Made by a program: the position numbers and the translations under genes. A DNA stretch of 64,000 bases from Alphaproteobacteria bacterium (GTDB taxonomy: Bacteria > Pseudomonadota > Alphaproteobacteria > UBA828): positions 2,592,001 through 2,656,000 of the forward strand of contig OZ243972.1 in assembly GCA_965214705.1 (NCBI GenBank), written 5' to 3'. The notes below the pieces were generated by a model that ran no database searches, was not told where the DNA came from, and worked only from the letters and a program-made list of their open reading frames with translations. Below, piece after piece: positions 49,490 through 54,064 of this stretch. Every line of letters begins with the position of its first letter. Position 1 is the first letter of the stretch.

Positions 49490-50216
49490 CGTAGAACTCG
49501 GGCATAGGCTGCCGCCGAAAACTGTCCCGCCTCAGGGGCCCACTTCTGTAATGGGGCGTTTCCCGTCAAGCTCGATTTTCAACGGATCATTGTCGCGACA
49601 ATCGGTTGTTTTCCTGGCGTGGTGTAGGGGGCTCCTTCGGCTTGGCTGTGAGGCGCCGGCGAGGCGCGGAGGAGGATGCCCGCGTCAGGTTCAATGTGGC
49701 CGACCGCATTGGTCTTGTGCTTGACCAACGTCTTGAGTCCTTCGCCGGGTTCTCGCTTCTGTCCGTGGTCAGCGCATTGGCTGCCGACGTCATGCCCCGT
49801 CCAAATCGGTTCCCCAGTGCCTATCTCCAAAGCGTGCTCGAACGCGACAGGTCGGTTCGGCAAACAAGTGGGCCCACGTGCATCATCGGGGACCGCGTCC
49901 CGGCGAGGGGACACGGGGGGATCGCCCCCCTTCAGGCGCGGCTCTTTCCTCCTCTCCTCGCTGATTGCCGATGGGATGCAGCCGTGCCTATGCCATCTGA
50001 AACGCCATCGCCTCGTCGCGCGTGAAGCGGAACTCGGTGCCATCCCGCCACATCTGGTGGAGCACCACGCCGATACGCCGGGCCAAGGCAACGGTCGCGC
50101 GCTTCTTGCCCCGAAGCTTTGACAGACGTAGCGCCCAGCCCTTCAGATCCTATGGGGCCGACTCGGAGACCGGCACTACGGTGCCGTTCTCGCTAGACCT
50201 CATCAGGAGACAAGAG

Positions 50217-51413
50217 ATGTCCCCAACGAACGAGACCGCCGCGCCGGTCAACGCAGAGCATAGCACGCTGTACGTTGCCATCGAGATCAGCGGAAAGAGC
50301 TGGGTGGTGGGAGTGAAGAGCCCTGCCAGTGATCGGATCGGGCTGCATTCACTGGGGCCAGTGGACGCGGCGACGGTCGAAGGGCTCAAGGAATTGATCG
50401 AGAAGCAGCGAGCCAAGGCTGAACAGGCTCTCGGCCGAGAGGTGCGTGTTCTGTGTTGCTACGAGGCGGGCTACCAGGGCTTCTGGCTTGTGCGCTGGTT
50501 AGATCAGGAGATGTCCATTGAGACAGTGGTGCTCGATCCGGCGAGTCTGCTGGTGAACCGAAAAGCGAAGCAGCGCAAGACGGATCGGATCGATGCGAAG
50601 AAGATGGTGCGCGCGCTACTGGCGCACGACCGAGGCGACGCTGCAGTGCTGAGCCGGGTGCGGGTGCCGAGCGTGGAGGAAGAGGACCGCAAGCGCCTGC
50701 TTCGTGAGCGTCGGCGGCTGGTGAAAGAGCGGACCTCACTGACGAACTCGATCAAAGGGCTGCTCAAGCTGCAAGGGGTCTTCGACCTGGCCCCCCGAGC
50801 CAAGGAGTTCGAGGAGGAGTTCGCGGAAGTGGTGACCGCGTACGGCTCACCGTTCCCGCCGCGGGCGCGTAAGGAGATCGAGCGGCTCAAGGAGAGGTTG
50901 TCCTTGGTGGAACGACAGCTCGCAGATGTCGAGGCCGAGCGCGACGCGGTCGCACGGTCGGGAGCCGACCTCCCGATCACGGATGTCTCGGAGGGGAGCG
51001 ATAAACAGGCGGCGGCGAAGATCGCAACGCTGGCCCGGCTCAAGGGGATCGGCAAAAACGATGCGACCCTGCTCACCAATGAGATTTTCTATCGCGACTT
51101 CCGAAACCGCCGCGAACTCGCGAGCTGGGTCGGCCTGGCGCCAACCCCGTGGGCGAGCGGTGACACGCACCGAGACCAAGGGATCGGCCGAGATGGCCCT
51201 GGCTGGGTCCGATCTCAACTCATCGAAATGGCGTGGCGCTGGCTGCGCCATCAGCCCGATAGTGCACTTAGCGAGTGGTTCGAAAAGCGCACTGCTGGCG
51301 GGCGCGGGCGCATCCGTCGAGTGATGGTTGTAGCACTTGCCCGGAAGCTGCTCATCGCCTTGTGGCGGTTCTCTGAAACCGGTCTCGTGCCGACGGGCGC
51401 CAGGATCGCCTGA
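50217..51413 (+). CDS. IS110-family recombinase/transposase
   Basis: AIEIS, CYEAG, KTDRIDA (RuvC-like domain), GLAPTPWASG (catalytic Ser), VALARKL. Confidence 0.94.
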   Translation: MSPTNETAAPVNAEHSTLYVAIEISGKSWVVGVKSPASDRIGLHSLGPVDAATVEGLKELIEKQRAKAEQALGREVRVLCCYEAGYQGFWLVRWLDQEMSIETVVLDPASLLVNRKAKQRKTDRIDAKKMVRALLAHDRGDAAVLSRVRVPSVEEEDRKRLLRERRRLVKERTSLTNSIKGLLKLQGVFDLAPRAKEFEEEFAEVVTAYGSPFPPRARKEIERLKERLSLVERQLADVEAERDAVARSGADLPITDVSEGSDKQAAAKIATLARLKGIGKNDATLLTNEIFYRDFRNRRELASWVGLAPTPWASGDTHRDQGIGRDGPGWVRSQLIEMAWRWLRHQPDSALSEWFEKRTAGGRGRIRRVMVVALARKLLIALWRFSETGLVPTGARIA

Positions 51414-51720
51414 ATCGTGAGACCGTTCCGTTCTTGCGTCAGCCGGACGCGGCCGGCGCTGGGCCGGGTGGCGTGTGGCCGGAGAACTGGCGGGCTGAAA
51501 GACGCCGACCTTCAGATGGGCCCCGCCTCCGGAACGCTGTGCCCGCAGCAAGCGGGATTGTGGGATGGAGCCAGCGTCTCGCCGCTGGCAACCGCCCGGA
51601 TAAGAGTTGGGTACGCGCAAAGCCGTGTGACCGGTGCAACAAGCGTTCCGATCTGGCAAGAGTAGCCGCCGATCCTGCGAACCCAGGGAGGCCGACACAT
51701 GTGGTAGCTGGTTCTGAATT
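51414..51720 (+). ncRNA. putative bridge/seek RNA region
   Basis: Contains GAACTGGC and CCTTCAG matching both target flanks and ATAAGAG matching the element's right end. RNA boundaries unknown. Confidence 0.7.
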
Positions 51721-52063
51721 TCTTGTTTGACATTCTACAGCCCCATAAGAGCCAGTTCGGTCCTGCGCGGTTCAGCATCACCGTGGCGGCCTGATAGAGC
51801 GCCGTGCGCAGAGTTGCGTCGCCGCACTTCGTGATTCCGCCGACAATATCTCGTTCGCCGGATTGGTCCCGTCCCGGCGTCAGCCCCACCCAGGGGCCGA
51901 CATCCTTCGATCTTCGGAACCGATCGGGATCGTCAATCGCCGACATGAAGGTCAGCGCCACTGCGGCTAATACGGTCTGACGGGGAACAGCAAACGTCTC
52001 AGCGGCTTCCGCTACTGGGTCATCCGCCACGGGCGCAAGGCGCTCGCGCGCCGCAGCCGCTAG

Positions 52064-53709
52064 CCCGGATTTCTCACGAGCGTCCATCGTTGGGTTGTTT
52101 GGTGTTTGTCGTGGGTTTGGTTAGAGAGTTGCGGTGTGGGCCGGGTAATGGCGCAGGAGTGGCGGTGGCGCCGGGGGCGCGGTTGAGGCTGGAGCGGGTT
52201 TTTGGTTGTTGGCGGGAGGGTGGCAGCGGGCCTGAGGCTCGGCTCAGGTGCATAATCGGGCGTGAGCACGTGCGAACTCGGGCGCGTGGGGTGCGCTTGA
52301 GGCCATGGCGATGCGGATGCGGCGGGTACTCAGGCGGACCTGGGCGCCGATCTTCAGCAGCTTGAGGCGGATCGAGCCGCAGGTAGCGCGGGCAAGGCGA
52401 GTTCCGGCGAGCGCGATGCGCCTGAGCGCTGCGAGCAGCACGTAGGCCATGGCGGCGAACCAGAGACGGAGCTGGTTGGCGCGCATGGTCTGAGCCGAGG
52501 TGCGGTCGGCGAAGAGGTCGAGCTGGCACTCCTTGATGCGGTTCTCCATGTCGCCGCGGGCGCAGTAGAGGGTCTCGTAGAGTTCCCGCCGGTCGATGGC
52601 GGCCGCGCTCAGCGAGGTGACGACGAAGCGGGGGTTGGCGCGGCCCGGCATCCACTCCGCCTTGCCGACGACACGGCGCGGGCGCGACCAAGTCTTGCAC
52701 GTGCGGTAGCGGAACTCGGTGAACAGCCGCGCCGGCTGGCCGCTCTCCCGCGAGCGGGCTTCGGCCAGGTCCAGGGCCGGTTGCAGGCGGTCCGTGAGCC
52801 GCGGGTTCCGGGCGAGCCCGAAGACATAGTCCACCCCGTTCGCCTCGCACCAGGCCATCAGTCCCTCGCGGGCGAAGCCAGAGTCTGCGCGCAGCACGAT
52901 CTCGACGGCGGGCCAGCGGGCGCGGATGCGCGCGACGATGCGCGCCACCTCTTCGGCCGCGCCGGCGCTGGCGTCGATGTCGGCCCGCCTCAGCTTGGCG
53001 GCCAGCAGGTGATCGCCGCAGAAGATGTAGAGCGGCAGGTAGCAGTAGCAGTCGTAGTAGCCGTGGAAGAAGCGGCCTTCCTGATGGCCGTGCAGCGGGT
53101 CGTCGGTGGCGTCCAGATCGAGGACCAACCGCTCAGGGGCCTGCCCGTGGGCGTCGAGGAAGAGATCGACGAAGAGCGTCTCGATCGCCTCAGGCTCATG
53201 ACCGATCCGGCGATAGCGATGGGCGCCCGAAGGCGCGTGCTCCAGCCGGTTCAGCGTCGACTTGCCCGCAAGCGGCGCACAGCCCGCACGCCCGGCCTCC
53301 AAACGCCCCAGCACCACCCCCAGCACGGGGTCGTGGCGCAGCGCGTCGTGGTCGATCAAGTCCTCGTAGCCCAGCGCGATCCCGAACACCCGCTGGCCCA
53401 CCAGGGTGGCAACGTCGTGCACCACACGAGAGGCCGCGCGCCCGTCCGAGAAGCAGGCGGCGAAGCAATCCACCAGTCCGATCGCCCGGTCCGTGGCGCC
53501 CAGCAGCAGGGCGCCCGCGTCCGAGGTCATCACCCCGCCGCCGAAGTCGGCCACCACATCACGCCCGTTCAGGCGTGCAAACTGCATCGCGGGCGGGCTA
53601 CACTCTGCAGGCATCGGGGAACTCCTCTGCAGCCGGTGAAGTCTTTGTTGCAGAAGAACTTTCTCACGAGCAGAGCCCCGATGCACACCATACTCGTGAG
53701 AAATCCGGG
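52064..53709 (-). mobile_element. IS1380-family insertion sequence
   Basis: 17-bp TIR CCCGGATTTCTCACGAG; TSD CTAG (52060-52063, 53710-53713). Confidence 0.95.
52244..53614 (-). CDS. IS1380 transposase
   Basis: TSDAG, LDLDATDD..HGHQE, RADSGF, YCARGDMENRIKE. Confidence 0.95.
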   Translation of the reverse strand: MPAECSPPAMQFARLNGRDVVADFGGGVMTSDAGALLLGATDRAIGLVDCFAACFSDGRAASRVVHDVATLVGQRVFGIALGYEDLIDHDALRHDPVLGVVLGRLEAGRAGCAPLAGKSTLNRLEHAPSGAHRYRRIGHEPEAIETLFVDLFLDAHGQAPERLVLDLDATDDPLHGHQEGRFFHGYYDCYCYLPLYIFCGDHLLAAKLRRADIDASAGAAEEVARIVARIRARWPAVEIVLRADSGFAREGLMAWCEANGVDYVFGLARNPRLTDRLQPALDLAEARSRESGQPARLFTEFRYRTCKTWSRPRRVVGKAEWMPGRANPRFVVTSLSAAAIDRRELYETLYCARGDMENRIKECQLDLFADRTSAQTMRANQLRLWFAAMAYVLLAALRRIALAGTRLARATCGSIRLKLLKIGAQVRLSTRRIRIAMASSAPHAPEFARAHARLCT

Positions 53710-53713
53710 CTAG

Positions 53714-54064
53714 CATCGAGGTGGCGCGCATGACGGCCCGCCCTGGTCGATCTCTTCTGCCGCAGCTTCGCGGCCCCACCTGCCGCCATCACGCTGGATA
53801 TCGACGATACCTGCGATGCCGTGCACGGCCACCAGCAGCTCTCGCTCTTTCATGCCCACCACGACACGCGCTGCTTCCTCCCCGTCCACGTCTACCAATC
53901 CGCTCACCAGCGCTGAGTTCACCACTCTCAGGTTACGCCTGTTCAAGATCGTCGCCCGCGTCGTCGAAAAGGTTACACACATCCAAATCCACTCCGCCTC
54001 GCCCTGTCCCGACACCGCCCTCTTCCGCCTGCTCGCAGGTCGCCTCTCCGCAGCAAGCCCCTGA
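53714..54064 (+). pseudogene. degenerate, internally deleted IS1380 transposase
   Basis: LVDLFC..TLDIDDTCDAVHGHQQLSLF..CFLPVHVY joined directly to AEFTTLRLRLFKIVARV. Confidence 0.75.

Follow-up and report, generated by a model that had tools for sequence, protein, structure and literature searches.

A probable RNA-guided IS110-family insertion sequence of IS1111-type organisation in the transposase gene of another IS110-family element of an alphaproteobacterium

In this study, we analysed a stretch of 64,000 nucleotides (nt) from an alphaproteobacterium of the UBA828 lineage (assembly GCA_965214705.1, contig OZ243972.1, positions 2,592,001 to 2,656,000), hereafter the window, which carries an insertion sequence (IS) that we call element A. 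Taken as a whole, the observations are best explained by element A being an intact and recently active RNA-guided IS of the IS110 family with IS1111-type organisation, and we hold this explanation to be very probable. Two short segments of its 3' non-coding end correspond to the DNA on the two sides of the insertion, and in relatives these segments follow the flanks. The interrupted DNA is the coding sequence of a second IS110-family transposase gene, called here the host IS.

Element A is 1605 base pairs (bp) long and has the IS1111-type layout of a 70-nt left end, a recombinase gene of 398 amino acids (aa) and a 338-nt 3' non-coding end. Its first letters are ATCCTATGGGG at 50147 and its last letters CCCCATAAGAG at 51751; the left flank closes with CCCTTCAG and the right flank opens with CCAGTTCGG. 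The parts of the element are as follows.

50147-51751, plus strand: whole element A, of which the genome has three full copies; in empty-site contigs, 50146 is followed by the right flank
50145-50146, no strand assigned: target-side copy of the AG core at the left junction; both junctions carry AG, and empty sites have it once
50147-50216, plus strand: left end of 70 nt; the left ends of relatives align from ATCCTATG
50217-51413, plus strand: recombinase gene, 398 aa, with the acidic set E23/E83/D123/D126 and an S314-G315 motif
51740-51751, plus strand: right-end sub-terminal repeat GCCCCATAAG and the element-side AG core, as indicated by the sequence, the copies and the relatives

The sub-terminal inverted repeat is formed by CCTATGGGGC at 50149-50158 and GCCCCATAAG at 51740-51749, which match at nine of ten positions, eight of them contiguous. 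The original prediction, made from the letters alone, had quoted motifs at 51484-51491, 51509-51515, 51600-51606 and 51727-51732 in an element spanning 50147-51751, and all of them were found in place. The window's own genome (7.9 Mb, 3 contigs) was searched for further copies. It contains three full-length copies, two identical and the third with three differences, and a fourth insertion is represented by an 86-nt left-end remnant with 98.8% identity at C3:1724983. Assembled contigs from three public runs (X1, X5, X6) run from 50146 straight into CCAGTTCGG, and because of this direct joining the boundary of the element is exact. The contigs are paralogous copies with 12-15 differing letters, from loci other than that of the window.

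All four insertions lie at (CC)TTC-AG-CCAGTTC in a single orientation, and AG occurs once in the empty sites, so that there is no target duplication. The left flanks read cCCTTCAG, gCCTTCAG, gCCTTCAG and tAGTTCAG, with TTCAG common to 4/4, and CCAGTTC starts the right flank in each of the three insertions for which that flank is known. Copies that keep their guides at unrelated sequences, which would speak against guided targeting, were not seen. Three of the four insertions are inside copies of the host IS gene, at the same N-W-L-K codons. At the fourth site no IS gene was recognisable and the flank contained no Pfam family; a helicase-like reading frame, so labelled from motif inspection, adjoins it. 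The host-gene copies are 88-99% identical to the intact copy (BLASTN), while the copies of element A are at least 99.8% alike, and we therefore consider the insertions separate and recent. In the window, the minus-strand flanks read ...NRAGPNW, ending at 51752, and LKGWALRL...FQMA*, starting at 50146. Removal of element A therefore restores N-W-L-K of a second IS110 gene, as had been proposed, and Pfam Transposase_20 in the flanking translation agrees with this; the cut falls 52 codons ahead of the stop. The exact 14-mer CCTTCAGCCAGTTC is empty at only two places in the genome, both in host-IS copies, at C1:603297 and C3:3041037, and an exact 12-mer gives the same two. Ten sites resemble the 14-mer with at most one mismatch (the two perfect ones included) and 138 with at most two.

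The 3' non-coding end can be read as two RNA modules, each with a pair of guides, with the following parts.

51470-51650, plus strand: predicted bridge/seek RNA core, with a target-binding module (51470-51527) and a donor-binding module (51530-51650)
51470-51482, plus strand: 5' strand of the target-loop basal stem, pairing with 51517-51527 in the RNAalifold consensus
51484-51491, plus strand: 5' target guide GAACTGGC, complementary to the right-flank top strand CCAGTTC and the core G
51491-51507, plus strand: distal hairpin separating the two target guides, paired in 94.7% of alignment cells
51509-51517, plus strand: 3' target guide, CCTTCAG (left flank and core) at 51509-51515, then AT, the first two bases of the left end
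51530-51538, plus strand: 5' strand of the donor-module basal stem, CGGAACGCT, pairing with AGCGTTCCG at 51642-51650
51554-51559, plus strand: GGGATT, probable 5' donor guide, complementary to ATCC(T) of the left end and to the core G
51567-51593, plus strand: donor-module distal hairpin with the 7-bp stem GCCAGCG/CGCTGGC, read from the sequence
51600-51606, plus strand: 3' donor guide ATAAGAG, in the same sense as the right end and core

In all three full copies, 7/7 flank bases match the 5' target guide, and the 3' target guide terminates in AG in nearly all relatives. For element A alone, such matches are suggestive. In 20,000 dinucleotide shuffles of 51414-51720, a left match of at least 7 nt arose 2036 times and a right match of at least 8 nt 520 times; both were present in 59 shuffles, and both in the correct order and within 60 nt in 10. 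One-sided matches are thus common, and the chance of both in order is small but not negligible, which leaves room for the explanation that the matches in this copy are coincidental and that the non-coding end has some other role. Against such an explanation, all four insertions lie at one sequence, and in dozens of relatives the two guide segments vary along with the flanks; we assign it a practically negligible probability.

When one genome per species was scanned, 195 of 284 candidate stretches were confirmed as relatives, of which the best 80 were used. A hidden Markov model of the RNA scaffold (nhmmer) gave 79 matches in these 80 loci, downstream of the gene, and 86 near-full matches were aligned once loci of the window's own genome had been added. 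In the alignment the scaffold was conserved and the guide columns were hypervariable. The right end was set in 80 of the 86 aligned loci. On the left side, a credible left end and a flank ending in AG were present in 62 of the 80, giving 54 unique guide-flank pairs; on the right side, the removal of duplicates and of rows that had under 12 flank bases left 68 unique pairs, two registers being allowed for the pairs and the control alike. Over the 6 nt before AG, the mean score of the 3' guide against the left flank of the same element was 4.11, compared with 1.63 for mismatched pairs, and a score of at least 5 was reached in 21/54 unique pairs but in only 19/2770 mismatched ones. Similarly, the 5' guide matched its own right flank (7 nt) with a score of at least 6 in 49 of the 68 unique pairs, against 75 of 4452 mismatched pairs (1.7%).

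The relatives in the genome of the window agreed with these results. B1, B2 and B5 (about 80% identical) and C, D and E (about 64%) share the scaffold with element A and differ from it in exactly two short segments. B1 and B2 have identical bases in 4 of 16 guide columns and in 188 of 211 other columns, and each copies its own left flank 8/8 in the 3' guide (B1 GGCAAGAG, B2 GCGGACAG). The 5' segment of B2 matches its own right flank at 7/8. It is this covariation of guides with flanks in relatives that decides for the guide reading, and the two target guides hold where they had originally been placed. The majority of elements use one register of the 5' guide, in which its last two bases face the core; 5' guides ending in C before GGGCT, that of element A among them, use the register nearer the hairpin.

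The donor guides were examined in the same manner. The right end, CATAAGAG in element A and CATAAAAG in B, is echoed in the second module as GATAAGAG and GATAAAAG, respectively, and the 3' donor guide follows the right end through five variants: ATAAGAG (A), ATAAAAG (B), ATACAAG, ATATAAG and ATAGGAG. This match is partly circular, because right ends were located with the donor guide, save where alignment fixed them (A and B) or flank-guide matches confirmed them (the ATACAAG, ATATAAG and ATAGGAG elements). The original assignment of ATAAGAG as donor guide agreed with these right-end variants. The left-end guide GGGATT at 51554-51559, which the original prediction lacked, is probable: the 5' donor segment reads GGGAT where the left end is ATCC.., GGTAT with ATACC.. 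(D and E) and GGCAT with ATGCC.. (L107).

Single-sequence folds of 51440-51625 and 51414-51751 were no better than those of shuffles (z = 0.55 and 0.33), and for this reason the consensus of relatives was used for the structure. With seven sequences, RNAalifold predicted 40 pairs, of which 7 showed compensatory change. A seven-helix structure was drawn up from this result and from inspection and was evaluated on 44 distinct sequences; as it was partly derived from the tested sequences, the test is somewhat favourable to it. In this test, 86.9% of the cells were paired, compared with 31.7-43.0% when the partners were slid; 19/37 pairs were changed on both sides, compared with 8-14 when slid; and the covariation score of 0.207 (at most 0.067 when slid) was reached by 0/500 shuffles. 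The strands closing the target loop, GGCGTGTGGCC (51470-51480) and GGGCCCCGCC (51518-51527), covary at columns 12/66 (AU 28, GC 14) and 13/65 (CG 34, UA 5, GC 4). The GGGCTGAAAGACGCC hairpin between the target guides is kept in close relatives, and distant ones have a different, longer hairpin. The donor-module basal stem has 9 bp with 97.5% of the cells paired, and for two of its pairs, both partners were replaced in 15 and 17 sequences. Helices 5 and 6, around the donor-module distal hairpin, were paired in 63.4% and 77.3%, in a part where the MAFFT alignment is poor. The CCGGAG/CTCCGG stem originally said to enclose the target guides was not confirmed, as CTCCGG belongs to the 9-bp helix CGGAACGCT/AGCGTTCCG formed with 51642-51650.

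The matches are equally present in the DNA, and transcription of this region is inferred. It could therefore be argued that they act as DNA, for instance through protein binding or DNA-DNA pairing in the right end, without any RNA. However, the helices keep their pairing by compensatory change, and the G-U pairs among them are valid only in RNA read from the plus strand. Moreover, the recombinase has the fold of recombinases solved with bridge RNA, and the homologous non-coding ends of IS1111 elements yield, according to PMC11187229, an RNA which copurifies with the transposase and is essential for movement. We consider an explanation at the DNA level very improbable.

The protein data also placed element A in the IS110 family. 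The recombinase matched Pfam PF02371 Transposase_20 (5.9e-13, 49.4 bits, cut-off 21.3) and PF01548 DEDD_Tnp_IS110 (1.1e-9, 38.7 bits, cut-off 29), as well as NCBIfam NF033542 'IS110 family RNA-guided transposase' (192.1 bits, cut-off 140). A sequence search of the PDB gave no match for the recombinase alone, and a profile of six sequences gave only a spurious coiled-coil match. On the other hand, an AlphaFold model built from a 26-sequence alignment (predicted local distance difference test score, pLDDT, 77.1) was compared with the PDB by Foldseek, and the ten best matches were all ISCro4 or IS621 chains (9t56, 8wt6, 8wt9; E 3.2e-10 to 5.6e-9), led by ISCro4 9t56_A (3.2e-10) and IS621 8wt9_A (5.3e-10). 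The D-E-D-D tetrad departs at its first position, where E23 of AIEIS aligned with D of GLDVS in the host IS protein (hhalign probability 97.5%); the first acidic RuvC residue is thus E, as originally noted. The same profile comparison paired E83 with LEAG, KTDRID with KTDRRD, and WASG with QSG. E23 was invariant in 26/26 clade sequences, E83, D123 and D126 were conserved, and Glu also comes first in the more distant plasmid relatives from Skermanella and Bradyrhizobium. The sequence GLAPTPWASG fits the G--P----SG motif, with S314 and G315 nearly invariant. As the change to Glu is conservative and the other family features are present, the assignment to the IS110 family stands. The clade recombinases have 385-418 aa, with one of 355 aa. 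In a literature search, no paper was found with both 'EEDD' and 'IS110'.

Several observations weigh against the RNA-guided explanation. The first catalytic Asp of the putatively active site is replaced by Glu. A score of 3 or lower was obtained in 17/54 left pairs and 11/68 right pairs, the 5' guide of B1 matches its own right flank at 5/7 only, and the 5' guide of element A sits one base nearer the hairpin than most, a position shared with eight other guide types. The 5' donor guide rests on few variants, other relatives fitting partly. To these the partial circularity of the donor match and the single-sequence folds are to be added, and a search of Rfam (evalue mode, 49500-52500) found no family with an E of 1 or less. 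In the genome, eight sites with a single mismatch stand empty, yet a two-mismatch site is occupied. In runs X1, X5, X6 and X7, for which assembled contigs only were searched, we found no circle junction and no element-free contig across the window locus. Nevertheless, an intact and recently active RNA-guided IS remains for us the very probable explanation, and the proposed IS110/IS1111-type element with guide RNA and AG core is supported by the covariation, the compensatory pairs, and the protein family and fold.

The RNA-guided mechanism has been known since 2024, and element A adds a further IS1111-type case. Siddiquee et al. (2024, PMC11187229) describe that IS1111 elements have a long non-coding region after the gene, that the seekRNA copurifies with the transposase and is essential for movement, and that in it the complement of the top strand lies 5' of the match to the bottom strand. 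Element A has the same order, with 51484-51491 (top-strand complement) 5' of 51509-51515. Durrant et al. (2024, PMC11208160) report a predicted right-end bridge RNA for 93.0% of the IS1111 elements. Because element A has the reported guide order and right-end RNA position, we suggested that it works like an IS1111-type bridge/seek system. It also resembles ISEc11, ISPa11, ISKpn4 and ISPst6 in its short left end, long non-coding end after the gene, sub-terminal inverted repeats, lack of target duplication, insertion in one orientation at one sequence, and GL-P----SG motif (GLAPTPWASG).

There are also differences. The recombinase has 398 aa, compared with the 330-350 aa stated for IS1111 transposases in PMC11187229, and the extensions beyond the repeat are AT and AG, two on each side (or AGAT and none, with the core assigned to the left), compared with the stated 7 (or 6) and 3. 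The inverted repeat of 10 bp with one mismatch is within the 7-17 bp given in PMC11208160 and below the usual 11-13 given in PMC11187229. The first acidic residue is Glu. The named IS1111 elements were compared here by their described features. According to the authors of PMC11187229, there is a separate branch with a downstream non-coding region, and element A may belong to it. With IS621 and ISCro4 (PDB 8wt6, 8wt9, 9t56), the modelled recombinase shares the fold, at a Foldseek template modelling (TM) score of 0.52-0.54 by query and 0.62-0.67 by target, and the RNA shares the two-module plan of target and donor guides around a dinucleotide core. In contrast, sequence identity is about 17%, the RNA of element A lies after the gene and theirs before it, its guide order is reversed and its core is AG.

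Taken together, the data suggest the following course of events. The 3' non-coding end would be transcribed from the plus strand as a bridge (seek) RNA of about 180 nt (51470-51650), which would be bound by the recombinase. In the target loop, GAACUGGC would pair with the top strand of CCAGTTC and the core G, and CCUUCAG with the bottom strand of the left flank and the AG core. The second module would read the joined ends of the element, AUAAGAG corresponding to the right end and core and GGGAUU probably to the left end. Element A would be excised as a circle with the junction CATAAG-AG-ATCCTA, and the recombinase, if its Glu site is active, would recombine the circle at the AG of 5'-CCTTC-AG-CCAGTTC-3' with no target duplication. 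Because the 14-mer is confined in this genome to the host IS gene, element A would land in that gene and remove its last 52 codons. One more feature near the right end had been connected with this course.

51727-51732, plus strand: TTGACA, a -35-like hexamer 19 nt from the right end

It had been proposed that the hexamer pairs with a -10 formed on circularisation. The hexamer is present, and TTGAC is conserved in the relatives of about 80% identity and found about 38 nt from the end in lineage D. However, the hexamers at 16-18 nt spacing across the putative circle junction are GAGATC, AGATCC and GATCCT, with no good -10, and a circle-junction promoter is unsupported for now.

The window's copy of the host IS gene is a remnant that spans just query 673-1044 of the intact gene, in two halves.

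51752-51961, minus strand: host IS gene, upstream half (remnant, codons about 225-295 of the intact relative); BLASTN 90.2% over query 673-887
49988-50146, minus strand: host IS gene, downstream half (last 52 codons and stop); BLASTN 88.1% over query 886-1044

The upstream half matched Pfam PF02371 (Transposase_20, 1.7e-17), and the intact protein of 347 aa matched PF02371 (3.9e-22) and PF01548 (3.4e-14). A DDE transposase of 511 aa at 52247-53779 on the minus strand (Pfam DDE_Tnp_1_4, 8.1e-150) adjoins the remnant. With element A and the host-IS remnant, at least three different ISs are thus piled up in this corner of the window. In contigs of X1 and X5 (depth 8.2 and 4.8), position 51568 inside element A is joined to 50656, a step back of 913 bases; a rearranged relative may be the source of this unexplained joint.

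The sister lineages were found in the genes of other ISs. Lineage D (about 64% nucleotide identity to element A) occupies 19/99 copies of an IS91-family transposase gene (Pfam Zn_Tnp_IS91 and Y2_Tnp) at ...CTCTTCA|ACTCC..., with examples at L016:1076-2740 and L022, in G000 C1, C2 and C3, outside the window. Its left junction is AG and its right junction AA, and the donor and target cores of this lineage therefore differ. Its guides fit the IS91-gene site partly (6/8 and 9/11), and copy L017, located elsewhere, has a perfect 11-nt right match. Lineage E (L019:1076-2728, G000 C3 at about 484000) interrupts an IstB_IS21 gene (Pfam 4e-55), with the junction at the codons ...DRIVH|R, and its 3' guide TTCCATAG matches the flank GTCCACAG at 6/8. 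In one D copy (G000 C1:1874405-1874930), the closing part of the non-coding end is repeated after the right end, the repeat beginning within the donor-module hairpin. This partial tandem duplication has the appearance of an aberrant recombination between the right end and an internal ...GG-AG-CC... site. The first 117 nt are missing from a B-type element at G000 C3:532856-534520, and the left end of another B-type element lies 77 nt beyond its right end; the left flank of this second element, CCCAAGAG, matches the B1 guide at 6/8, and a near-identical truncated copy lies 7 kb away.

More distant relatives were L113, on a plasmid of Skermanella rosea, and L115, on a plasmid of Bradyrhizobium sp. 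CB82. They have 46-49% identity, the same RNA scaffold and the Glu-first site, and their only annotation is 'IS110 family transposase'. In Skermanella, the copy begins 10 nt past an ISL3 transposase gene; in Bradyrhizobium, the end of the copy is 150 nt away from another Glu-first IS110-family gene. An insertion of the Bradyrhizobium copy inside that IS110 gene was considered and ruled out, as the element ends 150 nt outside the gene. Pfam searches of the flanks of copy 1 (L001), B1 (L004), B2 (L005) and L017 found no family at E ≤0.001, only a sub-threshold MmeI_N, and the idea that B1 is located in an ISAs1-type gene was not confirmed by the search of the B1 flanks.

The choice of target can be understood in more than one way, the RNA mechanism being the same in each. 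IS1111 elements habitually use repeated or mobile targets, such as repetitive extragenic palindromic (REP) sequences, attC sites and Tn21 ends. One IS1111-type element reportedly has a specific target in the Tn21 end; there it is a transposon end, and for element A it is the coding sequence of an IS110-family transposase. On our analysis, the target is preferably read as a dispensable, multi-copy and travelling landing pad, the inactivation of the host IS being a by-product. We prefer this interpretation because junctions elsewhere are rarely in mobile elements and because it fits the habit of IS1111 elements. In other genomes, 133 fragments of open reading frames (ORFs) at 49 unique junctions included DDE_3 (2), HTH_23 (3), HTH_32 (2), OrfB_IS605 (1) and Phage_integrase (1); the remaining fragments that matched anything matched ordinary genes, and most matched nothing. 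This Pfam tally of junction-abutting fragments replaced the longest ORF across the rejoined flanks, which was an unreliable guide to the target gene in G+C-rich DNA.

It was also proposed that the element is aimed at a competing IS110 family. On a selective reading of this, knocking out the transposase of a rival (in the sister lineages, of IS91 or IS21) would benefit the element or the host, and the guides would have been fixed for that reason. In line with this, 3/4 insertions and 2/2 empty perfect sites are in the transposase gene of the rival, and each insertion removes its last 52 codons. The sister lineages in the same genome, in the IS91-family transposase gene (19/99 occupied) and the IS21 IstB gene, and the Skermanella relative 10 nt after the ISL3 transposase gene, point in the same direction. 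However, a site-specific IS multiplies only on repeated DNA, which here consists of other ISs, so that the pattern arises without selection. Furthermore, two intact target copies are still unoccupied, one insertion is outside any IS gene, and the junctions in other genomes show few mobile genes. The proposal stands with regard to where the element usually lands; a selected intent is allowed by the data but not required, and we consider it unlikely. In the literature, we found no description of IS110-family elements targeting transposase genes, though the target tables supplementing PMC11208160 and PMC11187229 may hold such cases.

A broader interpretation is somewhat less likely again. The Glu-first (E-E-D-D) alphaproteobacterial clade might be a natural transposon hyperparasite whose guides were redirected again and again to conserved codons in the transposase or helper genes of unrelated IS families; its targets would be IS110, IS91 and IS21 here, and elsewhere sites near ISL3 and in IS630-like genes. 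If this were true, the clade would spread by riding on and silencing other ISs, and it would act as a sequence-programmable brake on IS expansion in IS-laden genomes.

With the landing pad still the preferred interpretation, element A has several points of moderate interest, namely the target within another IS110 transposase gene, the Glu-first site throughout the clade and the rich series of reprogrammed guides. As three sister lineages are inside genes of three other IS families, the question of IS-on-IS predation is directly testable in this genome. The whole clade is Glu-first yet still multiplying, which bears on the tolerance of the RuvC-like site. Finally, the clade combines one conserved RNA scaffold with at least 46 distinct natural 5' guides, each readable against its own flanks, and thus offers a ready natural reprogramming series for an AG-core bridge recombinase.

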